A stretch of 64,000 bases of DNA from an uncultured Acidobacteriota bacterium (GCA_963809485.1 CAWEJX010000004.1:64001-128000), one strand, 5' to 3'. Counted from the stretch's first letter, positions 3,094 through 59,379 are shown. Made by a program: numbers and translations. The notes: generated by a model from the sequence alone, not told the origin.

Positions 3094-4821
3094 ATGAAAT
3101 GGCATCTGTGTGCCGCTTTAATCGCGGCTCTATGTCTGAGCCTTTTTTGCAGCCTGCCGGCTCAAAACAATCAGGCTCAGGCACAAGGCAAGATGGTTGG
3201 GCAGAAAATTACCGTGCTCAGCCCAATGGGCAAACCGCCTGCGATTGAGCTGAAACCGATGGCGCCGCGGCTCAGGCTCGCTGGAAGGCAAAACGGTGTA
3301 TCTCGTCAACGACGGCTACCTGGGAACGGACCTTCTCCTTGGGGAGATGGAAGCCTGGTTCAAGGCCAATATGCCGAAAGTCAACATCGTTTACCGATCT
3401 GAAGGGCGGCGGAGGTTTTACTGCCGAAGATCCCAAATTGTGGGCAGAAATCAAGGAAAAGGCCGACGCGGTCGTCATGGGGATGGGGCATTGAAGTCTC
3501 TGTGTGTCGGCGGTCGTCGCACACTGCATCAATATTGAATCAAAACTTGGCGTACCCACGGTTCCCCTGATCACTTCGCGAATTTTACACCCAGGTTAAA
3601 ACCCATCACACCATCCAAAAAGGCATGCCCAATCTCCGGGTCACCTATCTCATATCGCCGGTTTGGGGCAAAACCGCCGAGCGCCTGCGCAAGGAAATCG
3701 TGATGAAGAGCCCGGTAAGCGGAAAGATGATCATGCAGGAGATCGTCGAGGGACTTACGCAGGCCCTTGAGCGCCGAAGAGAAGAAAACGGGCACCATCG
3801 AGCAGTCCGCGGGCCCGCGAGGCTTTCACCGATACCCCGGATAAACTTCAGCAGATGTTTATGGAAAAGAGGATGACCGACTACATGCCGATCATCCTGC
3901 CGACGGAAGAGAAAGGTCGCCGAAATGCTGAAAGGGACCAGCCACCGTCCCGACGAAGTGGTCGGCAAGATGGCGGCGCACACGGCAATGGGCGGCGCCG
4001 ACAATGTCGAGGTTTTTGAGCACTGGTCCTACACGGTGAAGACGGTGGCCATCAACGCGGTCATGGCCGGGTGCAAGACCCGAATACATGCCCGCTGCTG
4101 CTTGCCGTGGCATCCACAGGCAAAGAGGCCATTTCGGTGTCGGACAACTCCTTTACCGAAGGTCTGATCATCAACGGGCCCATCCGCGATGAAATAAAAC
4201 TCAATTACGGCTTGGGCGCTATGGGGCCGTTCAGCCAGGCGAATTCCACGATCGGCAGAGCATGGAACCTGCTGTCCATCAATGCCGGGAATTGCGGGAG
4301 AGTCGGCACAACCTACATGGGAACTGTCGGAAATCCCATGAACTGGAACAACGTCATTATTGCGGAGAACGAGAAAGATTCTCCCTGGCAACCCTACCAC
4401 GTTCGAAAAGGCTTTAAACCGTCCGACAGCGTCGTGACCTTGTGCGAAGGATGGGGAGTCCTGTCGGCCAAAAATTCAAAATACAGCGTATGGCAGAAGG
4501 AGATGGACTTCCCGGGCATCGTCAAGAAGATCGTCAACGACCAGGACGGACTTTTCGGAGCTCTGGTGGTCCTCAATCCTACGGTTGCGAATTACATCAA
4601 GGAAGCGGGCTACGATACGGTGGAGAAGTTTACGCAATATCTGTTGGCACCCGCAGAAGGGCAGGCAACCCCAGAAGCCGGCTCGCCAAACCGGCGCAAA
4701 GGGCCGGGCTTCGGGGCGTCTGCAGGTAAACATCGTTGTGACGGGAGGATCGAACAACAATTACTGGAGCTATGGCGGAATGGCGTGCCGTCAGAGCGTC
4801 CCGATCGATAAGTGGCGTTGA
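3094..4821 (+). pseudogene. UGSC-type selenoprotein paralog (U-S-L-C, TGA 3492-3494) with signal peptide; many single-base frameshifts (pseudogene or assembly error)
   Basis: Frame segments align with 43048-44727 (VMGMGH-U-SLC, AINAVMAGCK, KEAISVSDN, GTTYMGTVGNP, IDKWR*). Confidence 0.8.
3502..3524 (+). promoter_or_regulatory. Putative bacterial SECIS hairpin
   Basis: GTGTG-T-CGGC-[GGTC]-GTCG-CACAC beginning 7 nt after the in-frame TGA. Confidence 0.7.
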
Positions 4822-4833
4822 TCCTCATCCGGA

Positions 4834-5017
4834 GTCAAATACCTCCGGCAGAGGCGGAGGCTTGATTGTTTATCGCTTAAAGCGGCTGGATAAGCTGCAC
4901 TGCCTCTAACCGCCGACATACGCGGATAAAACGCCGGCCCTTGCTTTATAGATCGGCGTTCGTCGGCGTTTTATCCGCGTATGTCGGCGTTCAAGGATCC
5001 TGGAACTGTCGAACTCT
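4834..5017 (-). mobile_element. Divergent IS200/IS605-type non-autonomous element
   Basis: GTCA...CCTCCGGCAGAGGCGGAGGCTTG...CGCTTAAAGCGG end, inverted CGCCGAC/CGCGGAT repeats, GGAACTGTCGAACTCT resembling the other end. Confidence 0.6.
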
Positions 5018-5096
5018 TCGGCAAGGCAGCCACGAACCCGCGAGGCGTTCCTGTTCGCGCGATTCGTGGCTGCTTTTCTTTTTGCGGGATTTTGTC

Positions 5097-5501
5097 CTAC
5101 AGCAAGGGCAGGCTCTTCGGCGGTCCGGCAAATGAGTACACTTTCGCATCCGCCTCGGTGAAGTAAAACGTCACAAAGGTTTCATCGTCGGCGCCCTTGG
5201 GATAGATCTGGAGAAGCATGGCCGCCTCTGAAAAAGCCTGAACCTTGGCCTCGCGGCTGTCGTCCACAGCAACCTTGCCCCGGATGCGGAGCCAGGATTG
5301 ATCCGCGCCCATTGCTGAAATTTCGATATCCGGATTTTTCACCAGTTGCTGGAAAACATCCTTCGTTTTGTTCGTGCACATGTAAAGCGCGTTGTTCCTT
5401 TTCATGACAAATCCGAAAGGACGGACTCTGGCTTTGTTGCCATCGACGGTGGCAAGGTGAAAGACTTGATTGGCTTTTAGATATTCCAACGCAGTATTCA
5501 T
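5097..5501 (-). CDS. Pyridoxamine 5'-phosphate oxidase-like (NimA/NimC) flavin-binding protein
   Basis: FHLATVDGNKARVRPF, TNKTKDVFQQL.KNP, WLRIRG. Confidence 0.85.
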   Translation of the reverse strand: MNTALEYLKANQVFHLATVDGNKARVRPFGFVMKRNNALYMCTNKTKDVFQQLVKNPDIEISAMGADQSWLRIRGKVAVDDSREAKVQAFSEAAMLLQIYPKGADDETFVTFYFTEADAKVYSFAGPPKSLPLL

Positions 5502-5860
5502 GGAAACCTCCTGGTATGCAATGTATCAAAATGCCCTGAACGGCGGCCCGGCAACAGTATACGGAAATAATCCAAACCGCCTGCAGACAGAATCGCCCGG
5601 CGTCAATGGTTCGCTGAAGTCCAGGTCTGCCGGCAGAACCGGCGGTCATCCGGCTTTATTCTGCTGTTTCAGAAGCATACTTTTGCAGCGTCCCGAAGAT
5701 CAATCCAAATATGCATATTGCCCGATCTGCTGCGTTTCGGTGTCAAGACCAGCCACGGATCCCCAGTAAGTACCGCTCTCCAGAGACTGCCTCAAAACTG
5801 CCGGCGAGGATCTCATGACAGTCGTTTTGAGACCGACTTTGGACTCCCATCCATAAATTT

Positions 5861-6116
5861 TAACGCTGATGAACGCCGATAAACGCTGACTCACGCTGAA
5901 AAATCATAAATAAATATTGTTTTCTCAGCAGTTAATGGTAATTGTGCGAGGACGGTCTCTCGAGAGCAGCCCGCACTGGGGATTCGTAGCATTTTTGTGC
6001 CGCCGCAGGAATCTCCATCGGAAGCGCCTCATCGGCTTTTGCTTGCCGACCCTCGCCGAACAAGTCGGCGTTTGTCAGCGCTTTTGTCAGCGTATCTCAG
6101 CGTTTTAAAACACGGA
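5861..6116. repeat. Partial copy of the element core plus AACGCTGA-type decamer repeats
   Basis: 5997-6116 matches the internal arm GTGCCGCCGCAG...ATCGGAAGCGCCTCATCGGCTTTTGC...TCAGCGT of the copies at 35840 and 42591. Confidence 0.75.
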
Positions 6117-6166
6117 ATAATCGATGGAGCTGTCGGCGGATAGTAATGCAGCAGAGAAACGAGGGT

Positions 6167-6871
6167 TCAAGGAAGCAGGCTTTGCATCTGAATCACGGCA
6201 CGGCCCGTGCGCTTGAAGCGGTGGACCTGTCCGCCGGCCGCGCCCGGATCTCCGTCAGAATACGCGACCAGCGCTGCTCCTGAAGGGATTCCATAAGCTT
6301 CAGAGCCTGCGGGCAGCAACCGGGCCAAGGTTCGAAGCTCCTCCCAGTTGTCCTCTTCATCGTGGGTGTCGCAATAGACCTGCGCAATCCCGAGGCAGGG
6401 AAAGAGTTCCGGACCTGAACCCTCGACGGAATCACTCCACCGCACCCATTTTTGCGCCAGTATGATACTGCCTGCCGACACGCCGAAAAAAAGCTTGCCC
6501 TCCCGGTACTGATCCCGCAAAAAGCCGTCCATGCCGGTGCTCTCCAGGATCCTCATGCCCTGTTCCACATCGCCGCCGCTTATAAAAACGATCCGGCTGT
6601 CCTCGATGATGCGCGCGGCCTTTGCCGGATCAGCCCGTGCCCCGCAAAGAGGAGCAAGCCGGACAGCGCCCGCGCCGGCTTTTGCCAGCTGGCGGGAGAT
6701 CATGATGCGAAAGAGCGCATTATCCCCGGAGGCCGTACCCACATAGGCAACCGTGGGGGACCTGATTCCGGCCAACAGCAAAGCTTCACGGATCAGGGGA
6801 TCCGGACCGCGCCGCTGCCTGGACCGGCGGCCGCCGGCAATCAGATAGACCGGTTTACACTCAAGAGGCAT
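6167..6871 (-). CDS. Peptidase E / S51-like (class I glutamine amidotransferase fold)
   Basis: FISGGD, GVSAG nucleophile elbow, CDTHDE. Confidence 0.8.
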   Translation of the reverse strand: MPLECKPVYLIAGGRRSRQRRGPDPLIREALLLAGIRSPTVAYVGTASGDNALFRIMISRQLAKAGAGAVRLAPLCGARADPAKAARIIEDSRIVFISGGDVEQGMRILESTGMDGFLRDQYREGKLFFGVSAGSIILAQKWVRWSDSVEGSGPELFPCLGIAQVYCDTHDEEDNWEELRTLARLLPAGSEAYGIPSGAALVAYSDGDPGAAGGQVHRFKRTGRAVIQMQSLLP

Positions 6872-9642: not shown

Positions 9643-10662
9643 CTAATCTCCACTGAGACCGCCGGGCCAGGGCGAGTTCAGATGATAGGAAACGGATGGG
9701 CCGATCATTTCCACACGGCGGATTTTGCCGTTTTCGATGAGAAACGCTTCCGTTACCAGGATGCTGGATGGGCGGTTAAAGCCTTTGAACTCGTAGGGAC
9801 GGCCGTCGGAAAGAACGCCCCTGCTCACTGTGCCCTGGTCAAACACCGCATGAGCCCATACGATCCCTCGCTCCTGGTCTACAACAGGAAAGCGGCGGCC
9901 GTGGATGCTCTGGACCACAAAATATATCCCCAGCTTAAATTGCGACATGCAATCCATGGAAAAGAGATTGACGGCATCCGCGGGCTGATTGGATGGCCGC
10001 GGAACGTTGGTGGTTGCCGCTCCATTCTCAATCCGATGGCAGTCGTCGGTGAAAGGATAGGTGCCTGTACCGTTGATACCCTTGCCATCGTTCCTTTGAA
10101 GGCCCGTAAAATAGCCGTCGGCAATGGCGATGAGCTCCTGACGGGATAAACGCTGCGCAGGAGGAATCGATTTAAACCACATTGCCTCCGGCTTAAAGGG
10201 TTTGTCCATATCCGCGATGCTGTTCGGGCCGCCTCCGCCGGGCCTGAAGAAAACGCTTTCAATCTCGCTGATGCGGCCCAGCTCGATGCGCAGCCGCAGG
10301 CTCATCAGCAAAGGGGCGCCCGCTTCCCGCATCGTGCCCATGAAAGCCACCTGGCCGAACTCCGGGTCGGCAAAAATGTGCGTGTAGTTGCCCCGGCCTT
10401 CCGCGGTTTTCCAAAAACCGTCGCCGACTTCGACGATCTGATCGTTTTCCGTGTACACAACATCCCTGGAAAGCGGAAGCCGTCCGGGGTTATGGGCTAC
10501 AACTGCGGCAAGATACTGATCCACCAGGTCTTCCATGCATGCACGGTTGCAGTTCAAAGCAATCGGACCGGTGGATGCATCAGCTTCCGGAGAAGGATCA
10601 CCGATCAGGATTCCAGCGGCGATAAGAGCGATGAAACCAAAGATAACACCAATTGAACGCAT
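9643..10662 (-). CDS. Secreted hypothetical protein, tandem NTF2/SnoaL-like domains
   Basis: Signal peptide; CNRAC, YTEN, GFW, C.RIENG; homologous to 54324-55187. Confidence 0.75.
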   Translation of the reverse strand: MRSIGVIFGFIALIAAGILIGDPSPEADASTGPIALNCNRACMEDLVDQYLAAVVAHNPGRLPLSRDVVYTENDQIVEVGDGFWKTAEGRGNYTHIFADPEFGQVAFMGTMREAGAPLLMSLRLRIELGRISEIESVFFRPGGGGPNSIADMDKPFKPEAMWFKSIPPAQRLSRQELIAIADGYFTGLQRNDGKGINGTGTYPFTDDCHRIENGAATTNVPRPSNQPADAVNLFSMDCMSQFKLGIYFVVQSIHGRRFPVVDQERGIVWAHAVFDQGTVSRGVLSDGRPYEFKGFNRPSSILVTEAFLIENGKIRRVEMIGPSVSYHLNSPWPGGLSGD

Positions 10663-13441: not shown

Positions 13442-13451
13442 GCCCCTCTCA

Positions 13452-17401: not shown

Positions 17402-17522
17402 ATGGCACCCCCTGCTCAAAATTCCTATTGCAGACTCGCCGATCACCCGGGATCGCGGGGGGTTACTCTCCTGAGAGGACGAACCTCGCTGGTAATTTAT
17501 ATAACGCTTCGGTAGGGCTTAT

Positions 17523-17873
17523 GCCAGGCTTGAGCATGACTTTTTCGAATCCTTTCGGCTGTTTCGAGGGTTCTTCTGCCGCCGCCGGGCTGCCCAGGTA
17601 AAGCTGGACCACTTCCGCCCCTTCGCGCTTCCCTGCGTTCGTGATCCGCGCCTTCACCGTCACGCTCTGGCCCGCGGCGTGGTCCACCTGAAGATCGCTG
17701 TAGCGAAACGTGGTGTACGAGAGGCCAAAGCCGAACGGGAAGAGAGGCTCCTGGTTTTTAGCGTCGTACCGGCGGTAACCGACCAGAACCCCTTCCGAAT
17801 AATTGACCGTCATGCCGTCACCGGGATAATCCAGGAAATGGACGCCCGGCCCCTGCTGCTCATTGGCAGGGAA
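17523..17873 (-). pseudogene. Glycoside hydrolase family 3 C-terminal / Fn3-like remnant
   Basis: YSEGVLVGYR.YD, PLFPFGFGLSYT.F.Y, GAEVVQLY, KGFEKV; no catalytic N-domain. Confidence 0.8.
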
Positions 17874-18143
17874 CGCCGCGCCGAGGAACGCAATCAAGCA
17901 TTTGAATGCGTATCCGCCATGCATAATACCTCCCCGCCCCGCAGGGCTTTTGGGCAAGCCACAGATTTCTACAATTCCAGGCCGGGTATCAAAAAAATTC
18001 GTGAAATCCCGGTCTGCTTTTTTATATGATTTCCATTCATATTCCCGTAAAACAGTCTTGGAATTCTTCGAGGCTACATGTCTTCATAGTCCAGGACCAA
18101 ACTCCGAGGATTGGAGGCTCGAAGATGCTTAAAGGAGAACACC

Positions 18144-19769
18144 ATGAATGTACTGATACGCTGTCTGCCTGTTTTTGCTTTGATGGTGAACCTGTTCCCC
18201 GCTGCAGCCGCCCAGACAACACTGGAGGTGCTGAATCCGATGGGGTCGATTGAGCCGCCCAAAACCTACGGGCTCTCCCCTCGGGTTGCGGATCTGGCCG
18301 GCAAAAGGATCGCCCTCATGCACAATAACAAACCCGGCGCTTCCAATCTTCTCGATGCCCTGGAAACGCTGTTGAAGGCGAAGTACCCCGGCGCAAGCTT
18401 TTCGCGCGGATTTCAGACGCAGCCGGTAAAGCCGCCAAAGGATCCGGACATGTACAAAAAGGCGGCGGCGGCAAGCGACGTCTTCATTTTTGCCATGGGA
18501 GACTGAGGAACCTGCACGTGGTGGGGTTCCCACCACACGGTGCAGATGGAAAAGCTGGGCGTTCCCGGAGTGCTGCTCGCCAGCTCGCAGTTCCTTACGG
18601 ATGCAAGATCAGCCGCTGCAGACTGGGCGATGCCCGGCATACGCATCGTCGCTATCCCATCGGACAAATGGTACCGGTTTCGCGGAACGGTGAATGAAGT
18701 GCGGCCGCTCGCGGAGGCAGCCCTGGACCCGATCATCAAAGCTCTCACCACTCCCTTGACCGCGCAGGAGGCAAAGCCGCCCCAGCAAACGAAGGTAGAG
18801 CTTCCTCCGATCAAAATAACCGGAGCAGGCTATGCCGACTCCGTTGAGAAAATGAATGCGCTTTTCCTCAAAAACCATATGAGCGACGGGCTGCCCATTG
18901 TGCCTCCGACCCGGGAGGCCGTTGACGCAATGCTCAAAGGCACCTCGCGTTCCCGCGACGAGGTCATCGGCAAGGTCCCCATGAAGTTCGGCATTGCCAC
19001 GGTTGAGAAGATCGCGATCAATGCCGTGATGGCAGGCGCCAAACCGGAATATTTTCCCGTAATCCTTACGGCGATGGAGGCATTCTGCTCCGGTGAGTTC
19101 TGGCACATGATGGGATCCTCCGGCAGTTTTACGCTCATCATCATGGTAAACGGACCTATCGCGAAAGAGATCGATATGAACTCAGGGATCGGTTTTCTGG
19201 GCGACTGCTGGCGCGCCAACAGCACGATCGGGCGCAGCGTGCGGCTTGCGACGCGCAACATCGGCCACACCTGGCCGGCGGAAAACGACATGGCCCTGGT
19301 CGGCCGTCCATCGGCTCACACCTTTTTCACATTTGCCGAAAACGAAGAAATGAATCCATGGGAGCCCTACCACGTGAGCATGGGCTTTAGGAAGGAAGAC
19401 AGCACGGTGACGATGACGAAGGTGGGATCGTATTTCGGGGCTTCAGGTCAAACGGTAGGAGGCGGCGCTGTCGCAACCTGGACCGCTCAGTCCATCCTGG
19501 ATGGGATGGCGGGACACGCAACATCCAAGGGCGGCGGCTATTACACCTGGTTCCACCCGGAAGGCGCGCAGGCGCTGGTGGATGCCGGCTTCACCAGCCG
19601 CAGCAAAATACAGGAGTGGTTTTCCAGCAAAACCGGAGTCTTGCCCAGGAATATATCGGTCGCCGTCACCGGCGGCGTGCCGGGGTACTCGATGATATGG
19701 GGTTACGAACTGGATTCCCATGTGACCAAGAAGATTCAGGGCGCCACTTTAACCAAAGCCGGCCGCTAA
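18144..19769 (+). CDS. UGSC-type selenoprotein (541 aa, Sec121 in U-G-T-C), signal peptide
   Basis: ORFs 18111-18506 and 18540-19769 share a frame and are separated only by TGA 18504-18506; read-through AMGD-U-GTCTWWGSHHTVQMEKLG aligns with the uninterrupted paralog at 57619. Confidence 0.88.
18512..18545 (+). promoter_or_regulatory. Putative bacterial SECIS hairpin
   Basis: CTGCAC-GTGGTGGG-[GTT]-CCCACCAC-ACG-GTGCAG, 14 Watson-Crick pairs, G-containing loop 19 nt after the TGA. Confidence 0.78.
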
Positions 19770-23556: not shown

Positions 23557-23604
23557 GGGGGGACAGCCACCAGTGTCCCCCGGGGGACACTGGTGGCTGT
23601 CCCC
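23557..23604. repeat. REP-like palindrome (GGGGACAGCCACC family)
   Basis: GGGGACAGCCACCAGTGTCCCCC-GGGGGACACTGGTGGCTGTCCCC. Confidence 0.8.
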
Positions 23605-24167
23605 TAGATAATACCCTTTTGGATCAGGATCTCGAGCGCCCATCGCGCAGATTTTCCTACCACGCTCATGCATTTCGACGGATCGGAATGTCCGCCGGCC
23701 TCTTCAAACGTTTTCCAGTCGTCGGGATCCAGAAGGTTGAAGGACCGGCCGAAAAGCCTGGACTGGACCTGCGGGCACAGGATTGAGCCATATTCCTTTA
23801 AGAACCGGTCACCCAACAACCTGGCCGTCGCCATGGCTTCAGAGAGGCATTCCATACCCTCCGGAATCGGATGCGTTGCCGAGACCATGCCGGCGGGGCG
23901 GCCAAGATAATAGTCCAGCACCATGGTCCCGCCGATCACACCGCCGCAGGCGCCCGTCGTAAGACCTGCCTGGCCTCCGCACGAAGACGTGGCAACCTTG
24001 ACAACAATATCCTCAAATCCAAGGATTTCATGCAGCGCCGCCGCCGTGCACTGGGAACAGCTGCCCGAATATTTTTCGAAATTGACACCAAGCTCGAAGG
24101 CTTTCTCCAGCAGCTGTTTCTGCGACAGCCCGCGATATTTTTCCGATACCCGCTGTTTTTCTGGCAA
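23604..24167 (-). CDS. C-GCAxxG-C-C family redox protein
   Basis: SCSQC, GACGGVIG, ILCP and terminal C; start uncertain (TTG 24167). Confidence 0.8.
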   Translation of the reverse strand: MPEKQRVSEKYRGLSQKQLLEKAFELGVNFEKYSGSCSQCTAAALHEILGFEDIVVKVATSSCGGQAGLTTGACGGVIGGTMVLDYYLGRPAGMVSATHPIPEGMECLSEAMATARLLGDRFLKEYGSILCPQVQSRLFGRSFNLLDPDDWKTFEEAGGHSDPSKCMSVVGKSARWALEILIQKGII

Positions 24168-24185
24168 GAGAACCCAACCTTTCCT

Positions 24186-24233
24186 AAAAAAACAGCCACG
24201 AATTATCACCAATCCTGCAATTCGTGGCTGTTT
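24186..24233. repeat. CAGCCACGAATT-type hairpin repeat
   Basis: AAACAGCCACGAATT...AATTCGTGGCTGTTT; related arms at 5028-5071, 15419-15437 and near 41891. Confidence 0.65.
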
Positions 24234-30510: not shown

Positions 30511-30851
30511 GTCGTCCCAGACATCACATTCAGGATGCTGCAGCCCTTGTGTGAGACAATTCCTGCATGCAGCACTTCGCCAAATAGCCTTATCAACCGC
30601 TTGCCCTAAATGCAGCGGGGCCGGCTGATGCACGGACGCCGATGACACGATTTCATGAGCTGGATGCGAGCATCGATTTTGAGATAGGTTTATTCTTCGC
30701 CACTTTCCTCTTGTCCCCCGTAGCGGAAATGCATATAAATGAAAGGCTGGCTATTATTTCGGAACCGTGCAAGGGGAGGGACCAGAGGCCCTTTGCAGCA
30801 TTTCAGAGGCAGGGTGTAAAGCCCGATAAAATCCAATCGGAGAATAATTCC

Positions 30852-31703
30852 ATGGAAATCAGATTAAGTGCAAGCGGTCAAAACTCACTATCCACAAAAG
30901 TCTGTTTCAGCGATGAGAACGGATTTGAGGTCGCATCCACGATCGTCATGGGGAAAAAGGACGCAATTCTCATAGACGCGCAGTGGACGTTGTCCAACGC
31001 CTACCGCGTCATCACCGAAATCCTGGAAACAGGCAAGAACCTCACGGCTATTTATCTTTCGCACGCGCACCCGGATCATTATTTTGGAGCCGGCGTCATC
31101 GCGCAGGCTTTCCCCAAAGCCCGCGTCGTGGCGATACCCTCCGAAGCCGACATCATGAACAAGCAGTTCTTCGGCAAGATCGAGCATTGGGAAGGCATTA
31201 TCGGATCCCACAACGTTTGCCGGGTCTCCGCAAAAATCGAGCCCCTGAAAGAAAACCGCCTCGAACTGGAAGGACAACCGCTCGAGATCATGACCAAGGT
31301 CATGGGGGATATGCGGTACAACACTATGGTGTGGATCCCGTCGATCAAGACCCTGGTTGCCAGCGACGTGCTCTTCAATCAGGCGCACCCGTTCACCTGC
31401 GAGCTCACGAAGGAAGAACGCGCGCAGTGGATCGCCGATGTCGACAAGATCGAAAAGATGGGCGCCGAGGTGATTATTCCCGGCCATCAAAAGCCCGGGA
31501 TGCAGTTCGACAAGAGCTCTCTCGACTTCACACGGGAATACATCGTCGCCACCGAAGAGGAGCTGGTAAAACAGGACACGGTTGCCGGCTTCTACTTTGC
31601 CATGGCGGACCGCTTCCCGCAGGCGAATCTCGTCCGTCTCAGCAACGGAATGAACGCCGCGGTATTCAAGGGCGGGCTGGATTGGAACTGGCGCGAAATT
31701 TAA
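30852..31703 (+). CDS. Metallo-beta-lactamase fold hydrolase
   Basis: LIDAQ, SHAHPDH, ASD, IIPGH. Confidence 0.9.
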   Translation: MEIRLSASGQNSLSTKVCFSDENGFEVASTIVMGKKDAILIDAQWTLSNAYRVITEILETGKNLTAIYLSHAHPDHYFGAGVIAQAFPKARVVAIPSEADIMNKQFFGKIEHWEGIIGSHNVCRVSAKIEPLKENRLELEGQPLEIMTKVMGDMRYNTMVWIPSIKTLVASDVLFNQAHPFTCELTKEERAQWIADVDKIEKMGAEVIIPGHQKPGMQFDKSSLDFTREYIVATEEELVKQDTVAGFYFAMADRFPQANLVRLSNGMNAAVFKGGLDWNWREI

Positions 31704-33595: not shown

Positions 33596-33674
33596 AATTC
33601 CGGCAGGACCCTAAAGATTGCTGGCTAGCGATCCCGTCCTTACGGACGGTCTTTCCGAATCCCGTCAAAAGGGA

Positions 33675-33817
33675 TGTCATAGATCGATGACAAAAGTCCA
33701 AATAATCCAAGCCATTCAGGTACAGTTTCCATAAAACCGCCATTTGTGGCCGATTCCAAACATTTTATATGTCATTAAACAATGACAATTGACATCATTT
33801 GCAGAAGATGATAAAGT
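33675..33817 (+). promoter_or_regulatory. Two TGTCAT-N6-ATGACA palindromes plus a sigma70-type promoter
   Basis: Palindromes at 33675-33692 and 33770-33787; TTGACA (33789)-N17-TAAAGT (33812). Confidence 0.65.
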
Positions 33818-34148
33818 TCTAATGGTAACGCAGAGTAATCCTCTGGGGGGAGGCAATCCGGCCAGGGATTTTGCCATCCCCCCTTTATTGTGCCCCTGCA
33901 GGTCCCTACAGGGTTGTTTGCGTCACCACCGGAATGCAGGAAGGCAAAATTGCAGGGGGCAAGGAGAAAAAAACAACCAGAATTCCCAGGCCAGAAAATT
34001 CGAGCCAAATTGATTTCCAGTCCATGCGCACGGAACAGGGAGCATGCCCGCCGGGCCTCGCGCAATACCGAATCTGAGCCAAAGGGCGTTTGAAAGGCAC
34101 CGATTCCCTGTCTCGACTTCGCTGGGTTAACCATCAGGAGATATTTTC

Positions 34149-34517
34149 ATGTGTAACAGCAGAGATTGGATGATAATTTTCATGCTTTTGATCCTTTGTG
34201 TTGCCGCACCTACAGCTGCAGTGGCAAAAGGGTCGGATCACGGTTCCGTCAAAGTGACCGTGGCAAACAACGTCTTCGCCGCAGGAACCGAAATCAAATC
34301 CGGACAATATGACATCATGTGGGAATCCAACGCCTCAGAAGCCACTGTAATCTTCATATTGAAGGGAAAAACCGCAGCCAAGGTTCAGGGCAAAATTGTC
34401 GAGGTGGAAAATAAACCTGAGTACAATACCATACAGACCGCAAAAGATTCCTCAGGCCGTGAATCTTTGAAGACACTTCTGCTCGGCGGGAAAAATTTTA
34501 AAATCGTTTTTGAATAA
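34149..34517 (+). CDS. Small secreted beta-rich hypothetical protein
   Basis: Signal peptide; AGTEIKSGQY.I.W pattern; AGGAG RBS. Confidence 0.75.
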   Translation: MCNSRDWMIIFMLLILCVAAPTAAVAKGSDHGSVKVTVANNVFAAGTEIKSGQYDIMWESNASEATVIFILKGKTAAKVQGKIVEVENKPEYNTIQTAKDSSGRESLKTLLLGGKNFKIVFE

Positions 34518-34712
34518 GGATTGATTAAAAATCCGCGTCACTGGCGAGCGCCGAAGGCGAAGCACAAATGGGACTCTCTTGCGGCTGAGCCTTCGGCCTC
34601 CAACCATGCCCGCCCGTCCCATCAAATAAAGGCAAAAGCCTGAACCACACCTCTCGGGATATAGCCTGTCAGGTTCTTACAGGATACGGTTTTCCCCGAT
34701 GCCAGGCAGAAA

Positions 34713-35524
34713 TCAGCAGGGTCCGGCCTCAACTCCGTACAGGTCGAGCATGCGGCCCAGCTTCCCGATCTTTTTGTTTCCAAAGTAATAGTCCTCGCCG
34801 ACAAGAACGAGACCCGGAGGTCCGTTCCTCTCTTTCTGAGGCCTGGGAGGAAAACCGGCGAATTCAGGGAGCTGATCCTTCAGCTTTTTCGCCTTCCCTA
34901 TATTCAACATCGGGAAATCGCCGAAGGTAACTCCCATGGAGCCGTAATGCTTCTTCATCTCCTCCGGCAGAGAAGAATTCGGATCCTTCGTGACTATTAC
35001 GATCACATGCGTGGAAAGGAGGTTCCTTTTTTCATCGGGAATTGTCTCCATGAGCCCTGGTGATATTGTCAAGGCTCAGCGCCCTGCCCTTTTCCTGGTC
35101 GTAGTTTTTATGGAATTTATCCATGCTGATGAAGGTCCTGCAGAGGCGCGTCGGAATTGTCTATATACCTGTGGAAAAATTCGAGGCACTTGTCGTAGTC
35201 GTCAAAATAGCTTCCGTTGCTGTTATAACTGGGCAGGGCTCCTCCTTGGGCCGTGGCGATCAGGATGTCCGCCAGATCCTTGCCGTCCTCTTTCCATAGT
35301 GTCGGTTCTCCACCGGTGTAATTCATGTTCCAGTAGGAATCTTTCAGGCTTGCGCAGTCCCGAATCGCGGTCAGAACCTGATCCCATGTCAGGCGGTATC
35401 CGGGGCGGATGATATGATCCTCCGCATCGCCCACGTAAATGTATCCGCAGTGCTCGCAACTAAAATTGCACTTATGAAGCAAGGACACGCCCATGACATG
35501 CGTCGGCATTCTTTGGTCGACCAT
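34713..35524 (-). pseudogene. Radical SAM protein with two +1 frameshifts (near 35140 and 35052)
   Basis: CNFSCEHC, YTGGEP, NSNG; continues as RTFISMDKFH after removing one base, then joins ORF 34713-35072. Confidence 0.75.
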
Positions 35525-35839
35525 AGTAATCCCCCAGCAGCCGATTTGGCCCAAGTCCGCAAAAAGTGAAATGCATGAAAATGAATATCGGGAGACCGGG
35601 TCATTGTACTTCGATTATTGTGAGTTTCACGGAAAATACACGAAAAAGGGAAGCCTGAGGCAGCCCACAGCCGGCAGCAAAACCGGAGGCCGGCCGATGG
35701 CATTTGGGAATTCCATGTCCGGGTTCTCCCTGACGGAACGATGCGGTTGCCTGGGCCGCAATTTCGAGGGAAAACACCTGGCCGGATGCAAATGGAGAGT
35801 GCTACAATCGCCCAATCAATTACGGCACAGGGAATTATT

Positions 35840-36224
35840 GTCAGGTACCGGAGGCTTGAAGGATTTGAACCCCTCAAAGCGTTGGAGGAGTTACGCCGGT
35901 CTTGAACGCTGACTTACGCGGGCAAAAGCCGATGAGGCGCTTCCGATCCCCGCAGAGGCCAGCGCTCCGCGCTGGACAGTTTTCTGCGGCGGCACTGTGG
36001 CAAGAGCCGTGCGGCAAGGAGATGAAGGGTATGAGAAACCGGGCGTTTGCCACAGTGCCGCCGCAGAAAACTTCATCGGAAGCGCCTCATCGGCTTTTGC
36101 TCGCCGACCCTCGCCGAACAAATCCGCGTTTGTCAGCGCTTTTATCAGCGTTTCTCAGCGTTTCAAAATACGGAGCTGTCAAACTCTTTGAGTCCCCCGG
36201 CAGAGCCGGGGGTTTACCAATGTG
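35840..36224 (-). mobile_element. IS200/IS605-type non-autonomous element, long form (one terminal hairpin collapsed)
   Basis: GTCA terminus, nested 30-bp and 26-bp inverted repeats, CCCCCGGCAGAGCCGGGGG, flanked by ATTA. Confidence 0.85.
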
Positions 36225-38934: not shown

Positions 38935-39069
38935 ATCCGGGCTTTCAGTTTATTGACCTCGCTCAGGAATCCCAAATAGCCTGATAGCAAAAAATATCGC
39001 CAATCTTCATGCAGATTACTTTTGTTGATTTTCTATTGGAGTTATTGCGAGATTGCGCAACAATTTATT

Positions 39070-39756
39070 ATGGTCTCACCACAAAAAATTATCCGGAAAC
39101 GCAGCCGTCGCGAAATCCTAAGAATGGGCTCCGCCGTCAGCGGCATCGTCGCAAGTGGATCCATACTGCGCACATCCAGTCTTCTGGCCGCACAGGAGCC
39201 GGCCTCAGCCCTTCCCTGGCCCTGGAAGGAAATCGAGCCGGCCAGCATCCAGGAACGCGCGTATCAATCAACATGGTCAAAAAACGCCTGCATGTTCGGC
39301 ATCCTCGAGGCTGTGCTTGGGACATTGGCCGATAAATACGGCGCTCCTTACAGCATCTTTCCGGTGGGCGCCGTTTTATACGGCAGCGGCGGCTTTGCCG
39401 GCACCGAATCACTATGCGGCGCCATCAATGGATGCGGGCTGCTTTTCGGCCTTTTCGCCAGGAAAGAGCGGGACATTTTCGCTCTCTCGAGAGAAATGGC
39501 TCGCTGGTACGAGACTGCGAACCTGCCGGCCTACAAGCCGAAGGATCCCAAATTGGATATCCCCATTGTCCAGTCGGTAGCCGGTTCAACCCTCTGCAGT
39601 ATCTCGTCGAACGTCTGGACCAAGGTCTCCGGCCACAAGCTTCTGAGCATGCAGCATATGGAACGATGCAGCCGTCTTGTCGCCGATGTCGCGATGCAGG
39701 CCGTCACCCTTCTTAACGGTTACGGTACCGGCAAGAGTCCTGTAAAAAAGGGCTAA
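39070..39756 (+). CDS. Tat-exported C-GCAxxG-C-C family protein (split-Soret cytochrome c-like)
   Basis: SRREIL Tat motif; ACMFG, LCGAING, LCSIS, ERCSRL. Confidence 0.8.
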   Translation: MVSPQKIIRKRSRREILRMGSAVSGIVASGSILRTSSLLAAQEPASALPWPWKEIEPASIQERAYQSTWSKNACMFGILEAVLGTLADKYGAPYSIFPVGAVLYGSGGFAGTESLCGAINGCGLLFGLFARKERDIFALSREMARWYETANLPAYKPKDPKLDIPIVQSVAGSTLCSISSNVWTKVSGHKLLSMQHMERCSRLVADVAMQAVTLLNGYGTGKSPVKKG

Positions 39757-43047: not shown

Positions 43048-44727
43048 CTACCTCCACTTGTCGACCTCGACGCTCTGCAGATACATCAGTCCGCCGATGC
43101 TGTAGTAATTGTTGTTGGTTCCGCCGGTGACGATGATTTCCATCGCATTGGGCTGGAACCAGGGCTCCTGCCCTGCCGGCGCTTCCATCAGGTATTTCTT
43201 GAAATCATCAATCGTATTGTAACCGGCATTCTTGACAAAATTGGCGATCGGCGGGCTGAGGACCGCCGTGGCGCCGAAAAGGAACGGGGCCTGTGTGATA
43301 AAGATATCCTTGATGATCTTGGGGAAATTCATCTCTTTGCCCCAGACGTTGGCCCTCCAGTTTTTCGCCGATAGAACGCCCCATCCTTCAAACAGGCTCA
43401 CGATGTTCTGGTTCGGCTTGAAGCCCTTTCGAACTGAAAATGGCTGCCACGGGGAATCGCGCTCGTTCTCGGCAATGACGATGTTGATCAGGTTCATGGG
43501 ATTCCCCACGGTGCCCATGTAGGTCGTCCCCACTTTGCCGCAGTTGCCCAGGTTGATGGCGATCAGGCTCCACGCTCTTCCAATGGTGGTATTGGCATGG
43601 GCATACGGCCCCAGCGCGCCGATCTCATAGTTCAGCCCGATCTCGTCGCGGATCGCGCCGTTGATTACCAGGGCGCCCACAAAGCCGTTGTCGGACACCG
43701 AGATGGCTTCCTTTCCGGTGGACGCCACCGCAAGCAGCAGCGGCAGATATTCCGGTTTGCAGCCGGCCATGACTGCATTCACGGCAACGTCTTTGACCGT
43801 GAAGGTCCAGTACTCAAAATAGCCGCCGGTGTTGGTGGGCGACATCTTGCCGACAATTTCATCGGGATCGTGGCTGGTTCCCTTCAGCATGTCGGCGACC
43901 TTCTCCTCGGTCGGCAGAACCACCGGCAGGAAATCGGTCCACCGCTTTTCCAGAAACATCTTCTGAAGATTATCGGGAGTATCCGTAAATGTAGCCGGGC
44001 CTTTGTCCCGGACCAATTCGCCGGTCCTCTTTTCTTCAGCCGTCAACGGCTTGGTCAGATGCTCGACGATTTCCTGCATGACGTTCTTTTTGCTGATCGG
44101 ACTGATGCCGTTGACGACATCCCGGCGCAACTGTTCGCGGGTTTTTCCCCAAACCGGACCGCGAACCCACTCGATGCGCAGGCCGGGCATGCCTTTGAGA
44201 AGGGCGGCCTCTGTTTCCTGTTTGTAGAATTCGGAAAGGACCAGCGGAACGGCGGGAATACCCATGCTTGCTTCGAAATTGATGGAGTGGCCGACAACTG
44301 CCGGCGCACATTGGCTTCAATGGCCCATCCCGATGATTACGGCAGCGGCATTCTGCTTGATTTCGGCCCACAACTGCGGATCTTCAGCCTCAAAGCCCAT
44401 GCCGCCTTTTCTCTTGAACACAACCTTGGTCTTGGGCATGTTCTGTGTAAACCAGTCCACCATTTCGAGCAGAAGGTTGTCTCCTCCCACAAAGCCGTCG
44501 TCGACAATGTAGATTGTTTTGCCGTCGAGGGAGGCCGGACGCGGCGCCATTGATTTCAGTTTTACAGGGGGAGGATTCCCCAGCGGATTAAGCACCGTTA
44601 TCCTGGTCTCAGCGGAGGCTGCCGCCTTATTCCCCTGTGCCATAGCCTGATTGTCCAAAGCCGGGAAGCCGCAAAACAGGCCCAGGCAGAGCGCCGTAAT
44701 GACGGCCGTCGATATAAAGCCCTTCAT
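43048..44727 (-). CDS. UGSC-type selenoprotein (559 aa, Sec137 in U-S-Q-C), signal peptide
   Basis: ORFs 44317-44727 and 43048-44265 are in frame, separated only by TGA (44319-44317) and 17 sense codons: IIGMGH-U-SQCAPAVVGHSINFEASMGIP. Confidence 0.88.
44287..44309 (-). promoter_or_regulatory. Putative bacterial SECIS hairpin
   Basis: GTG-C-GCCGGC-[AGTT]-GTCGGC-CAC beginning 7 nt after the TGA. Confidence 0.72.
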
Positions 44728-55187: not shown

Positions 55188-55235
55188 CCTTTTGCTGCTG
55201 CGCTCGACGTCGGGTTGTGTGTTTTTGCTGGAATA

Positions 55236-56057
55236 TCAGAACAGGATCATGCCCGCCAGAAAAACGGCAATGGCCACAGCGACTCCGAGAACTGCGTCCG
55301 CCGCATAGTGATAACGACCCAGCACCACTCCGATCGCAATGCTGACCGATATCCACATAAAGACCGCTCCAACCGGCGGTAAGAGGTAAAGCAGCACGAG
55401 CGAGACGGAAAATGCCGTTGCCACATGCGCGCTGGGGAAGGTGTTAACATGGATGCTTCCGTGGCGGAGTATCCAGAGATTAAGCTGGCGTATTCTTGTT
55501 GGCGGCAGGATCGATGGTTCGCCGTTGGTCAATATCCGTGGCGGTATAGTCCGGGCAAATGGCAAGGCCGCATTGCACAGATATGCCGCCGGCAGCACGA
55601 TGGCCCAAAACTCATCCGCGTGGCGTGCCATATGCGCGATATAGAGCACGCCCAAACCAAAAGGCAGAAGGGGATAGCAGAGCAGATAGGTCAGCTCAAA
55701 ATAGGCTGCCATCCATGAAGAAGCGCGTGCGCCCGGACGATATTTCCCGAACCACCCAAGAATTCTATGATCGAGCCGGATGAGACGGTTCTGGAGTACC
55801 CCGCTTGGAGTGGTGAAAAACAGACCTGACGCCCAATAGGCCACAAGGAAAAGGGGGGCAGGCAGCCAATCGCGGATCACGGAAGCCGGCAGGGGATGAA
55901 CAAGCCGGTCCAGGAACTGAACGCTCGAAAAAAGTGCAATCACTCCCAGCCCGAGGGCCGTAATTTTGGCCCGCCGATCGGGACGCAAGGGGCGCAGCCA
56001 GGCCAGCGCAATCAGAAACGCAAAAAAAAGGACATTGATCCATTCAGCTGCACGCAT
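55236..56057 (-). CDS. PAP2 family membrane phosphatase
   Basis: PPR, NTFPSAHVA, RYHY..D. Confidence 0.88.
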   Translation of the reverse strand: MRAAEWINVLFFAFLIALAWLRPLRPDRRAKITALGLGVIALFSSVQFLDRLVHPLPASVIRDWLPAPLFLVAYWASGLFFTTPSGVLQNRLIRLDHRILGWFGKYRPGARASSWMAAYFELTYLLCYPLLPFGLGVLYIAHMARHADEFWAIVLPAAYLCNAALPFARTIPPRILTNGEPSILPPTRIRQLNLWILRHGSIHVNTFPSAHVATAFSVSLVLLYLLPPVGAVFMWISVSIAIGVVLGRYHYAADAVLGVAVAIAVFLAGMILF

Positions 56058-56159
56058 GGCTCAATCCATACGCCGCCATGGGAAATGAATGCGGGCCGGG
56101 CAAAGTGTTTGACCGCATGGTATGTCTTCATGCGCCGCATCGGCGCAAAATGCCCTTGG

Positions 56160-57215
56160 CTATTTTTCGGGCGGATTCAGAGTGTATTTGCGCGTCATTC
56201 CCAGCGTAAACAGGATATACGGCCGGTCGATGCGATTGAATTGTATAGGACAATGCTTGAGGTTCGGCGGTACCCATATCAGGCTGCTTTGGGTGATAAG
56301 ATACTTCTCGCCGTTGAGCCAGAATTCGAGCTCTCCGCCCAGGTCGCCCGTGTTTCCCTTCCCCCCGGTACCGATAAATCCGAAAACTTCACCCCACGCG
56401 TGGCTGTGCTCCGGGTGGTTGGGGCCCTTTTCGGATCCTTTCCACATATATACAAAATCTATATACGGCGCCCCCTCGATGGAATCGAGGTCCAGAAGGC
56501 GGTCTCCTTCAGTGGTGGAGCTGTTCTTCTTTCCCATTTCAGCCCACTTCTTCAAGGTCTCAGGTGAGACTTTGTCGGGGTTGACTCCGTAAGAAATATA
56601 TTTGGCAAAGTTCCTTTCCTCGGCTTTGTCGGGTTTGAATTCGGTTGCGGTCCTGGAGTACTGGGTTGCCATTCCGCCGGTAAAGAAGAGAACGGGCGAG
56701 TCTATCCGGGTGAATCGGATCGGGCAGTGCCTCACTCCCTTCGGAACATAGATGAGGCAGCACTTGTTTATCATGTATTTCTCTCCGCCGAGCCACACCT
56801 CGATTTCCGAGCCCAGGTTCCGGAAATCCTTTTGCCCTTTGACCCCTATGAATCCAATGAATTCGTCGAAGTCATGGATATGCTCCTGTTCAGCGTAACC
56901 CTTGGCGGCACCCTCCCAAAGCCAATGGAAATCAAGATACGGAGCCCCTTCGGTCCGTGTCGTGTCCAGATTCAGAATCTGAGTCGATGGAACCATCGAC
57001 TGCTGAACCTTTTGTTCCTTGCGGATTTTCTCCAGCATCTCCGGAGAAATATCCAGAGGCTTGACGTCGGTGAAAATATACTTGGCATATTTCCTCTCCG
57101 CGCTTCGGTCCTGCGCAACCGCATTGTCTGACGGCCAAAGAACCAGGGCTGCGGAAACGGAGGTCAGGAGAATAAGCAAAACGGCCAATCCGATATATCG
57201 ATATGCTCTGCGCAT
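56160..57215 (-). CDS. Exported or anchored protein with two cupin-like domains
   Basis: N-terminal TM; repeated ER.YAKYI...EH.H...E..GFIG...LG.E.E.WL.GEKY.I...P....HCPI.F.RID. Confidence 0.82.
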   Translation of the reverse strand: MRRAYRYIGLAVLLILLTSVSAALVLWPSDNAVAQDRSAERKYAKYIFTDVKPLDISPEMLEKIRKEQKVQQSMVPSTQILNLDTTRTEGAPYLDFHWLWEGAAKGYAEQEHIHDFDEFIGFIGVKGQKDFRNLGSEIEVWLGGEKYMINKCCLIYVPKGVRHCPIRFTRIDSPVLFFTGGMATQYSRTATEFKPDKAEERNFAKYISYGVNPDKVSPETLKKWAEMGKKNSSTTEGDRLLDLDSIEGAPYIDFVYMWKGSEKGPNHPEHSHAWGEVFGFIGTGGKGNTGDLGGELEFWLNGEKYLITQSSLIWVPPNLKHCPIQFNRIDRPYILFTLGMTRKYTLNPPEK

Positions 57216-57618
57216 GGGGGATCCCTCCTCAAGAAAAATTAGCCTGTTTCTGGAGCCGTCCTGTGACGCATGGACCTTTCCGAGCAAGCATAATAAAAGG
57301 ACACTAAACCGATGTCCGTGCATCAATAGGCAATCGGACAGAAACAACAATGCTCTTTGAGGCATTTTTATCACGAATGCGCATCCTGCCGCAACACGGG
57401 AGACAGATAACCGGATTTGCAGGTCTACACCCGAAGCTGCTAGCCGATTTCCATGCGTCAGGCCCAGCGGGTTCTCGAGACTCCACGGTCCGGGGAAACA
57501 TAGTCAAAAAAATCGGCAGCGTCGTGAGATAATGCGCAGATACCGCTTGCTGTCCGCATCAAGGAGGCAAGAAGTGAAAAACGCCAGGAATCCCGGCTCA
57601 AGCTTGGAGGGTAATTCA

Positions 57619-59379
57619 ATGAAAGAGAAAGTTGCGTTCACATGCCTGAATCCTCAGGGTGCAGTCGATATCGCCGCTCCTGCGGGTCTGACCGCTCCCC
57701 GCGTCAAAGACCTGGCCGGCAAGAGAGTCGGCATTTTCTGGGATGGCAAAAAGGGCGGCGACAACTTCTGCATCGCGCTGGAAGAGGCTCTGAAAAGGAA
57801 ATATCCCACAGCCCGGTTCATCCGCCTCGTATGGGGAGACGTCGAGGCGGCGGAGAAAAGCAAAAACGAAGTGGACACATTTGTCTTTGGTGTCGGCGAT
57901 GCGGGAATGGGGGGATGGGGCCAGTGCCGGAATGTAATGGACCTGGAAAAACTCGGCAAACCCGGAATTTTTGTAGTGGGAGAGAATGCCATTCACACGG
58001 CAAGAATGTCGGCGCGCGACTCGGGAATGCCCGGATTGCGGATCGTGAGCCTGCCTTCCATAGATTATTACCCCAACCGCTCGACGGCAGACGGACTGAG
58101 ACCTGTGGTAGAGGCACGCATAAGCCTCATTATCGACGCCTTAACCAAACCCCTGACGCCCGAGGAGAAGAATCCATCTTTGATGCCGCAAAGAGAGTTT
58201 CCGGCAAAAGTCAGGATTTCCGCCGAGAGCTATGAATTCGCACTGGATGAGTTCAACCGGGTATACCTCGAAAACCATTGGGGGGACGGCTTACCCCTTA
58301 TTCCTCCCACAAAAAAAGCCGTCAAGCGGATGCTTTCGGGGACCAAACGTTCCCCGGACGAGATTCTGGGCAAGATCCCCTTCCGCAACGGAATTGCCAC
58401 GATCGGGAAGGTGGCTGTGAACGCAGTGATGGCGGGCGCCAGGCCGGAGTACCTGCCCGTGATCATCGCCGCTATCGAATGCCTTGCCGAGGAGGGCTCC
58501 TTTTCTCACATGATGAGTTCGGAGGGCTCGTTCACCCTGATGATCATGGTCAGCGGGCCTATCTGCAGCGAGATCAACATGAATTCCGGCGTGGGACTGT
58601 TGGGCCATGGATGGCAGGCCAACAATACCATCGGTCGTGCCGTAAGATTGTGCATGACGAACCTGGGATATCTATGGCCCGGAGAAATCGATATGGCCCT
58701 GATCGGCCGCCCTTCCTCGCACACTTTCTATACCTTCGCCGAAAACATGGAGCAGAGCCCCTGGGAATCATTCAACGCGGGCCTGGGTTACGGGCCTGAG
58801 GACAGCTGCGTAACGCTTTCCACGGTTGGCGGCGCCGGTGGATTGGGCATGAAGATATACGGCGGAGGCGTGGTGGAACCCTGGGATGCTGCGGAGGTCC
58901 TTCAAAGCATGGCTGAGGAAGTGGCCGGCGATAGGGCGATATTTGCGGCTTACAAACTGGGAGTCGCCAATTATTTCGCTCATTTCCGCAAGCACATCAT
59001 GATCATTCATCCCGAACTGGCGATCATGCTGCAGCGTCTCGGATACAAAACCAAACGCAGTTTGCGCGACTACTTTTACGAGAGCTCAAGAGTGCCGTTT
59101 GAAGAACTCACCCTGGATGAGGTCAAGGGCTTAAGAGACAGGATGAACACAAAGCCGGGCGGAGTGTTCTTTGCGAACGATTCGATTGCCGCAAGCCAGC
59201 TTCCGCTTTTTAAGGCAGCTCTCAAACCGGGCGGCAAAGTCCCGGTAGTGAACCCCGACGACATCCACCTGATTGTCTCCGGCAGCATACCGGGATATTC
59301 GTTCGGCATGTCGTATATGCGTTCGGCGCACAAAACAAAACGCATCCAGGGGGCCAAGTTAACACGGTCCGGCCGCTGA
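57619..59379 (+). CDS. UGSC-type family paralog without Sec or Cys (A-G-M-G), no signal peptide
   Basis: Full-length homology to 18144-19769 (PRV.DLAGKR, DGLP.IPPT, NAVMAGA.PEY, DMAL.GRPS.HT, IQGA.LT..GR). Confidence 0.88.
   Translation: MKEKVAFTCLNPQGAVDIAAPAGLTAPRVKDLAGKRVGIFWDGKKGGDNFCIALEEALKRKYPTARFIRLVWGDVEAAEKSKNEVDTFVFGVGDAGMGGWGQCRNVMDLEKLGKPGIFVVGENAIHTARMSARDSGMPGLRIVSLPSIDYYPNRSTADGLRPVVEARISLIIDALTKPLTPEEKNPSLMPQREFPAKVRISAESYEFALDEFNRVYLENHWGDGLPLIPPTKKAVKRMLSGTKRSPDEILGKIPFRNGIATIGKVAVNAVMAGARPEYLPVIIAAIECLAEEGSFSHMMSSEGSFTLMIMVSGPICSEINMNSGVGLLGHGWQANNTIGRAVRLCMTNLGYLWPGEIDMALIGRPSSHTFYTFAENMEQSPWESFNAGLGYGPEDSCVTLSTVGGAGGLGMKIYGGGVVEPWDAAEVLQSMAEEVAGDRAIFAAYKLGVANYFAHFRKHIMIIHPELAIMLQRLGYKTKRSLRDYFYESSRVPFEELTLDEVKGLRDRMNTKPGGVFFANDSIAASQLPLFKAALKPGGKVPVVNPDDIHLIVSGSIPGYSFGMSYMRSAHKTKRIQGAKLTRSGR

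Follow-up and report, generated by a model that had tools for sequence, protein, structure and literature searches.

UGSC-family paralogs with in-frame UGA codons in a 64-kb stretch of an uncultured Acidobacteriota bacterium: probable selenoproteins with a second conserved domain

A window of 64,000 nucleotides (nt) from an uncultured Acidobacteriota bacterium (GCA_963809485.1 CAWEJX010000004.1:64001-128000), i.e. the whole stretch of DNA analysed here, carries four paralogous genes of the UGSC family, termed G1 to G4; tblastn searches with the read-through proteins brought up no fifth copy. Judged from sequence comparison, G2 and G3, and also G1 provided that its frame is in truth intact, are very probably selenoproteins, in which an in-frame TGA would be read as selenocysteine (Sec, U). 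Each protein consists of an N-terminal UGSC domain, which holds the recoded codon, and a conserved C-terminal domain (C-domain) of ~350 amino acids (aa). The three are new members of a known, uncharacterised selenoprotein family, to which they add an apparently exported and poorly annotated U-S-x-C subfamily.

When the frames were searched with TGA read as U, two long frames opened with one recoded codon each, 18111-19769 (+) and 43048-44727 (-). The first is G2, listed from a TTG at 18111 and comprising 541 aa from the likely start ATG 18144 (18144..19769, +); the second is G3, with 559 aa from ATG 44727 (43048..44727, -), and both have a signal-peptide-like N-terminus. G1 (3094..4821, +), located by tblastn at 3094-4818 (+), was delineated by three-frame reading and alignment to G3, with nine +1 frame changes along its length. 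G4 (57619..59379, +), the non-redox paralog, is open under translation table 11 and has 586 aa from ATG 57619, within a listed open reading frame (ORF) of 57532-59379 (+); it has neither a signal peptide nor a downstream hairpin. A GGAG-type ribosome-binding site precedes each likely start, ATG 3094 in G1, ATG 18144 in G2, ATG 44727 in G3 and ATG 57619 in G4. A preliminary description of this DNA had announced four homologous genes of ~540-590 aa, which stands as far as the four paralogs are concerned, but not for G1 as an open frame of ~570 aa. The in-frame TGAs that it placed at 3492, 18504 and 44319 (-), within HUSLC, DUGTC and HUSQC and at one aligned column, are borne out by the translations: the codons lie at 3492..3494 (+) in G1, in the local frame, at 18504..18506 (+) in G2, where U is residue 132 in the TTG reading (U132) and residue 121 from the ATG, and at 44317..44319 (-) in G3 (U137). 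The stop-free fourth gene had been taken as proof that both halves belong to one polypeptide; the continuity of its frame agrees with this, but G4 is no Cys homolog, as it has Ala at the U column (GCG, 57901-57903, within G-D-A-G-M-G) and Gly in place of the resolving Cys. We infer that G4 is a cytoplasmic paralog which has lost both redox residues.

At the protein level G2 is 40% identical to G4 and 32% identical to G3, and G1 and G3 share 68.8% of their aligned bases (1144/1662). The proposed division into two subfamilies holds, G1 and G3 belonging to an H-U-S-x-C clade with the C-terminal tail ...DKWR, and G2 and G4 to a D-U-G-x-C clade with the tails ...LTKAGR and ...LTRSGR. As to the 'paralogous selenoprotein system' suggested earlier, the selenoprotein paralogs are there, but nothing shows that the four genes act jointly. 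In 15 of 80 related genomic loci (L037, L049, L034 and 12 others; L numbers denote such loci) two or three genes of the family share a span of about 21 kb; clustering of paralogs is usual in the family and does not set the window apart.

The behaviour of the U column in homologs is central to the assignment. Genomic homologs were counted in the best 80 of 593 confirmed loci, all found through a C-domain motif in one-genome-per-species contigs; read with TGA kept open, the 80 loci gave 113 family instances, 94 of which cover the column. It is occupied by TGA in 80, by Cys in 10, by Thr in 2 and by Ser in 2, and the read-through proteins thus align both with Cys and with TGA, as the preliminary description had anticipated for UGA-recoded paralogs. 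The motifs are UGSC (36), USTC (16), UGGC (11), UGAC (6), CSTC (4), CGSC (3), USSC (3) and UPGC (2), with USQC (L077) and UGTC (L068) among the singletons; in line with the earlier description of USLC and USQC as non-canonical, UGSC is the most frequent form, and HUSQC recurs only in L077. This locus, from an Acidobacteriota bin, holds the closest genomic relative of G3 among the best 80, with 72% identity. In a 17-sequence alignment the column contains C (CSTC, CSSC), T, S, N or A. The 150 library representatives listed comprise 79 that cover the column, 50 that begin just past it and 21 other cases. The 79 have C in 38 (CGSC in 18), T in 9, S in 8, E in 8, D in 5, A in 5, M in 2, G in 2, H in 1 and I in 1, and the 50 start 6-66 residues past the column, as expected if a gene caller restarts after the TGA.

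Thus, in G2 and G3 (and in the local frame only in G1) the UGA lies within a conserved domain and is flanked by coding sequence in both directions, and its column holds Cys in homologs and UGA in orthologs. Elsewhere in the window TGA is a stop codon: of 33 family-supported ORFs, 11 terminate with it and have normal lengths, and the code is therefore not reassigned. A general reassignment of UGA to a standard amino acid in this organism is accordingly an extremely remote prospect; the frames that open with TGA read as U would fit it, with no other support, and those that open elsewhere under this reading are mostly antisense to real genes or overlap them. It is also highly improbable that the TGAs are real stops, yielding an N-terminal protein of ~120-136 aa and, by initiation at an internal codon, a second protein of ~405 aa. 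Gene callers produce precisely these halves, ORFs initiated by ATG, GTG or TTG do exist past the TGA (18540-19769 and 43048-44265), and the family has genuinely split forms. However, the genuine splits fall between the two domains, around profile positions 185-205, and not at the U column, a real stop would cut the Pfam domain mid-way, and a stop at one column in 80 of 94 homologs with Cys in 10 is the signature of Sec. Furthermore, the hairpin found past the TGA covaries.

This hairpin is the second line of evidence for reading the TGAs as Sec. SECIS-like hairpins (for selenocysteine insertion sequence) follow the codon in G1 (3502..3524, +; apical loop GGUC), G2 (18512..18545, +; 14 pairs and an internal loop, apical loop GUU) and G3 (44287..44309, -; apical loop AGUU). 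Those of G1 and G3 begin at +10 from the TGA, and in G4 an in-register control fold gave no hairpin at the equivalent place. The G2 hairpin reaches -28.5 kcal/mol (z = -2.37), with 4 of 200 shuffles folding as well. In the U-G-x-C group (56 sequences) 79.5% of the helix cells are paired, as opposed to at most 44% with slid partners, 46 cells have changed on both sides, and none of 500 shuffles reaches the observed pairing or covariation; in the U-S/P-x-C group (26 sequences) the value is 86.5% against at most 54%, again with 0/500 shuffles as high. Since the sequences are related and coding, these figures are to be read as support and not as probabilities. Within these terms, the stem-loop directly 3' of the UGA is kept through compensatory changes. 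The bacterial SECIS of E. coli fdhF serves as the comparison system: as there, the stem-loops in the window start ~10 nt past the UGA and have a G and a U in the apical loop about 20-24 nt away, but they differ from it in sequence and coding context.

A number of observations weigh against this identification and have to be set beside it. Window scans found none of selA, selB, selD and tRNA-Sec in the 64 kb. Taken alone, the G1 and G3 hairpins are unremarkable (z = -0.11; 76 and 80 of 200 shuffles fold as well), and the mean z over homologs is no lower than -0.90 for TGA forms, with 0.04 as the value of the 14 non-TGA forms. In 9 of the 26 U-S-x-C sequences two pairs are not formed and a shifted register is apparently used, and by eye 2 of 5 Cys-form sequences with HCST(C/Y) could form a similar hairpin. 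Finally, the three translated proteins score 90, 50.9 and 42.4 bits against the NCBIfam equivalog NF041046, 'UGSC family (seleno)protein', which covers 147 positions of the N-terminal domain only and has a cut-off of 125. Rfam and tRNA scans of the window returned nothing, with no Rfam family at gathering score.

Pfam places the proteins in the family, UGSC (PF24696) matching G2 with 105.5, G3 with 84.9 and G4 with 54.4 bits (cut-off 25) over about residues 39-213, and the match runs across the TGA in both G2 (residues 39-213) and G3. The literal U-G-S-C motif does not occur in the window, where UGTC, USQC and USLC are found, and AGMG in G4. The UGSC-containing selenoprotein family was first listed in two surveys (PMC1976440, PMC2398784), and the existence of a family of this kind without known function, invoked in the preliminary description, agrees with what these sources state. 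PMC2398784 ranks it with the selenoprotein families most abundant in aquatic metagenomes, and PMC2398784, PMC1976440, PMC9312934 and PMC13188914 give its function as unknown. A literature search on UGSC, PF24696 and NF041046 returned surveys and reviews only, with no functional or structural study among them. The window genes resemble the UGSC family in their PF24696 scores above cut-off, in the U-x-x-C at the same place and in the interchange of Sec and Cys; they are unlike it in their motifs, in their length of ~540-590 aa with a second domain, in their signal peptides and in falling below the NF041046 cut-off. A parallel by description is the 'UGSC/Unknown_1 fusion' of Zhang and Gladyshev (2008), named in the text and in the legend to Figure S1A (PMC2398784): in both cases a UGSC domain is joined to a conserved domain of unknown function, the likeness being one of description.

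The family is large and badly served by annotation. The whole-protein query gave 3102 word-indexed matches and, among representative clusters, 4713 at E <= 0.001 and 797 at E <= 1e-30; ten clusters that were looked up bear the name 'hypothetical protein' only. The best 80 loci come mostly from Acidobacteriota, Dehalococcoidia, Desulfatiglans/Thermodesulfobacteriota and Betaproteobacteria, with some Actinomycetes and Bacillota. The earlier suspicion that gene callers split these genes is confirmed by what the databases store. Among the listed relatives of G2, 86 of 120 are 3' halves, and 58 of 59 matches to its N-half are fragments of about 111-181 aa which end at the TGA and cover 53-54%, one of them being the 120-aa call made in the window itself. 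The matches listed for the 184-aa piece of G1 are 331-453 aa long in 120 of 120 cases, and the closest of them (P0299) begins at the codon directly past U-S-L-C. The U-S-x-C subfamily falls below the NCBI naming cut-off with its relatives stored as 3' halves, and for the U-G-x-C subfamily of G2 both halves are stored separately.

G1 requires separate consideration. Its homology to the other paralogs is spread over all three frames, with nine frame changes, every one of them +1: compared with G3 there are eight single-base insertions near 3269, 3393, 3573, 3759, 3818, 3912, 4077 and 4091, and a further insertion of 37 nt (net +1) at 4666-4725. With the extra bases omitted, no stop remains besides the Sec TGA and the terminal one, and the protein is 62% identical to G3 in register; at codon positions 1, 2 and 3 the two genes differ by 26%, 20% and 47%. 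Relatives up to 96% identical are open for 435-443 aa past the TGA. Because nine insertions come without any deletion or nonsense codon, sequence errors are favoured over decay and appear the somewhat more probable origin of the shifts. The competing explanation, to which we give a smaller though substantial share, is that frameshifts have recently turned a third paralog of the Sec type, G1, into a true pseudogene, which would leave G2 and G3 as the sole live selenoprotein genes. Nine frame changes within 1.7 kb would suit such a history, and redundancy with G3 would relax selection on G1; moreover, G1 is the sole visibly broken gene in an otherwise dense window whose other ORFs are intact and densely packed, so that the sequence quality looks good outside it, a circumstance that in itself fits a pseudogene as well as it fits errors. 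On the other hand, the family-invariant residues are all kept, the close relatives are intact, and a gene that had decayed neutrally enough to gather nine indels would be expected to show stops and damage to conserved positions as well. A different irregularity in the window is the stretch 33600-36050, which is taken up by short ORFs of 107-162 aa that lie on either strand and shift from frame to frame, without any family match, and may be degraded or poorly sequenced; it precedes a 501-aa gene in which a URO-D match is confined to the C-terminal 200 residues.

The domain architecture was followed in G2, where the UGSC domain (PF24696) spans 18225..18749 (+) by Pfam match and model and the C-domain, which belongs to no described family, spans 18750..19766 (+) by profiles and models. 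An AlphaFold model of G2, for which an alignment of 89 sequences was used (predicted local distance difference test, pLDDT, 92.6; predicted template-modelling score, pTM, 0.91), has five alternations of strand and helix in the N-domain, with U132 located between strand 124-130 and helix 133-148. Foldseek comparison of the whole model with the PDB gave loose matches with a TM score of about 0.2 (GH3 second domain, EF-Tu, FMN azoreductases, lumazine synthase), and among the matches listed (ranks 1-50, some omitted) alpha/beta folds that bind nucleotides or flavins predominate, with no thioredoxin present. These matches presumably fall on the N-domain, because the C-domain alone gives different hits. 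As modelled, the UGSC domain is Rossmann/flavodoxin-like and not thioredoxin-like. Consequently, the 'thioredoxin-like' motif of the preliminary description is not upheld, and a Trx-like fold, suggested earlier for the UGSC family in PMC2398784, receives no support from the G2 model.

The C-domain modelled alone reached a pLDDT of 94.0 and a pTM of 0.93. It has no Pfam match even at E <= 10 and none in NCBIfam, a single chance hit (E = 0.17) among PDB sequence profiles, and in the ESM Atlas, once PF24696 is excluded, no named match; the clusters returned there, unnamed or automatically named and ~400-430 aa long, probably represent the same truncated family. Foldseek against the PDB found no convincing relative (best E = 9e-4, TM <= 0.30, root-mean-square deviation 14-16 Å), its leads being class I fumarate hydratase, Toblerone-fold amidohydrolases and MmgE/PrpD epimerase. 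Two of these were tried with hhalign and rejected, as the C-domain aligned with a probability of <1% both to the fumarate hydratase encoded in the window itself and to an MmgE/PrpD neighbour. Among the genomic instances 10 have the N-domain only, 18 the C-domain only and 80 both fused, a ratio biased by the discovery of the loci via the C-domain motif. In eight loci (L015, L023, L034, L036, L048, L063, L065 and L075) a UGSC domain with its TGA kept and a C-domain occur as separate ORFs, and N-only and C-only ORFs adjoin in L023, L048, L075, L015 and L034, as judged from the printed start coordinates; these loci would represent a natural split at the domain boundary.

As regards function, the two halves of the protein have to be considered together. 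The U and the Cys at +3 are retained or lost together, and the consensus motif of non-redox relatives lacks both. Classification of 305 relatives gave 239 redox and 66 non-redox forms, 3' halves presumed to be Sec forms being counted with the former. In both groups D259, T267, T297, N304, N370, R375, N383, E410 and W417 are kept; in the C-domain of G2, E410 is invariant, and D259, T267, N304, N370, R375 and W417 are invariant or nearly so. The columns that strongly discriminate redox from non-redox relatives lie near the U-x-x-C helix (F161: 98% vs 24%) and none lies in the C-domain. Since the non-redox relatives retain the invariant residues of the C-domain, the core of the fold is independent of the redox pair. 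The C-domain probably carries a conserved acid/base active site, to which the U-x-x-C would be an added redox centre, most likely acting directly on the bound substrate.

On this basis the following course can be proposed. A ribosome meeting the in-frame UGA would find the stem-loop ~10 nt downstream serving as a bacterial SECIS, which would recruit SelB and Sec-tRNA(Sec), so that Sec is inserted and translation goes on. In the folded protein Sec would belong to the U-x-x-C pair, located where a helix of the Rossmann/flavodoxin-like UGSC domain predicted by the model has its N-terminal end. The C-domain would bind a small polar or carboxylate substrate, and the pair would cycle between selenol/thiol and selenenylsulfide, thereby reducing it. 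That the C-domain binds such a substrate for reduction by the U-x-x-C pair has, in our estimate, about even chances. Glycine reductase selenoprotein B and D-proline reductase PrdB, U-x-x-C enzymes that are reduced through thioredoxin, may serve as a model, in that the Sec of a U-x-x-C attacks a bound small substrate and the selenenylsulfide is then re-reduced; the analogy does not claim membership. A similar setting is seen in 6 of the 80 loci, where a thioredoxin-reductase-like (TrxR-like) gene lies <=6 kb from the UGSC-family gene. In contrast to selenoprotein B and PrdB, however, the window proteins have no GRDB Pfam match and no sequence match to solved structures, no pyruvoyl partner is evident, and many members appear to be exported. 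The motif of the reductases is entered in Table 2 of PMC2398784.

Not all findings favour a reductase. The 66 of 305 relatives without redox residues retain every invariant residue of the C-domain, which in turn is devoid of any conserved Cys. Among 35 long or extended relatives scanned, 21 bear fn3, Big_2, SLH, Flg_new or Cu_amine_oxidN1 domains; these surface-anchored-type proteins have signal peptides, are without U-x-x-C and belong to the 66. No cluster of neighbouring genes occurs in more than 11 of the 80 loci (696 neighbour ORFs clustered), the commonest being TctC (11), ABC ATPase (11), SDR (10), AMP-binding (8), MmgE/PrpD (8) and TrxR-like (6). A less probable but serious rival is that the conserved activity is a non-redox one, the C-domain being hydrolase- or isomerase-like or a binding module for extracytoplasmic polar substrates, e.g. 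glycans, and the U-x-x-C a regulatory or stabilising selenenylsulfide switch. The retention of D259, N304, N370, R375, E410 and W417 in non-redox relatives, the 21 extended forms, the export signals in G1-G3 and many homologs, and the clustering of the discriminating residues mostly in the N-domain around the U-x-x-C helix would all be in keeping with such a role. However, Sec is nearly always catalytic in characterised selenoproteins, the pair is kept in 239 of the 305 relatives, and the C-domain has no structural match to any hydrolase, its best PDB hit being the one quoted above; direct action of the U-x-x-C on a bound substrate is therefore retained as the preferred proposal.

With respect to localisation, the N-termini of G1-G3 look by eye like signal peptides of the general secretory (Sec-type) kind, and from these leaders the proteins probably act outside the cytoplasm. 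A crude heuristic combining hydrophobicity with a twin-arginine (RR) motif called leaders in 15 of 21 U-S/P-x-C instances, 11 being Tat-like (of the twin-arginine translocation type), in 8 of 43 U-G-x-C and in 2 of 10 Cys instances. Many Acidobacteriota homologs with H-U-S-T-C have a twin-arginine-like leader (...NRRKLLSLLG...; L037, L049, L052, L053, L058, L061, L062 and L039), unlike G1 and G3 with their Sec-type leaders. To our knowledge, a Tat-exported selenoprotein other than formate dehydrogenase would be unusual. A more tentative and, on present evidence, rather unlikely extension is that the H-U-S-x-C clade (G1, G3 and relatives, these mostly from Acidobacteriota bins) and part of the U-G-x-C clade (G2) are exported selenoenzymes with leaders of the Sec or Tat type, in which the Rossmann-like UGSC domain presents the selenolate to the active site of a fold without solved relative.

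Turning to the surroundings of the four genes, window genes seldom recur beside homologs, and there is no operon logic. A metallo-beta-lactamase-fold gene at 30642-31703 (+) is 74% identical, in aa as well as in nt, to L014 11717-12571, which lies directly downstream of a UGSC-family gene in an Acidobacteriota bin; the window copy adjoins none of the four paralogs. The cupin-domain gene 56160-57374 (-), divergent from G4, has homologs <=6 kb from UGSC-family genes in 2 of the 80 loci, and a 339-aa family-less protein (9643-10662, -) in 3 of the 80, its best matches (L005_8957_9901 and L001_7917_9824) being encoded just upstream of a family gene. These two links, weak as they are, are the only recurring ones seen. 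Just upstream of G2, a 164-aa ORF (17463-17957, -) has as its sole domain the Fn3-like PF14310, a domain of the C-terminal end of GH3 glycosidases, and has the appearance of a remnant or of a small domain standing alone. Further selenoprotein candidates in the window were rejected, the other ORFs opened by a single TGA being antisense, trivial extensions or junk. Two C_GCAxxG_C_C genes (PF09719) at 23604-24212 (-) and 39022-39756 (+), the latter with a Tat-like N-terminus, are Cys forms without in-frame TGA; the family is counted among selenoprotein families in a 2026 review (PMC13188914).

The UGSC family has been without known function since 2007, and the window provides a compact test case for it, with an intact Sec paralog from each of two subfamilies, a non-redox paralog of natural origin and one broken copy. 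The comparison offers new handles: the apparent export of many members, a C-domain that combines an invariant Glu with the lack of any structural relative, and a UGSC model that is not a thioredoxin fold. In practice, the selenoproteomes of Acidobacteriota and related anaerobes are probably undercounted. If the exported selenoenzymes envisaged above are real, they would perform selenium-dependent chemistry of a kind undescribed so far on extracytoplasmic substrates, and the non-redox, surface-anchored relatives of Gram-positive bacteria would be a redox-free offshoot of the family.

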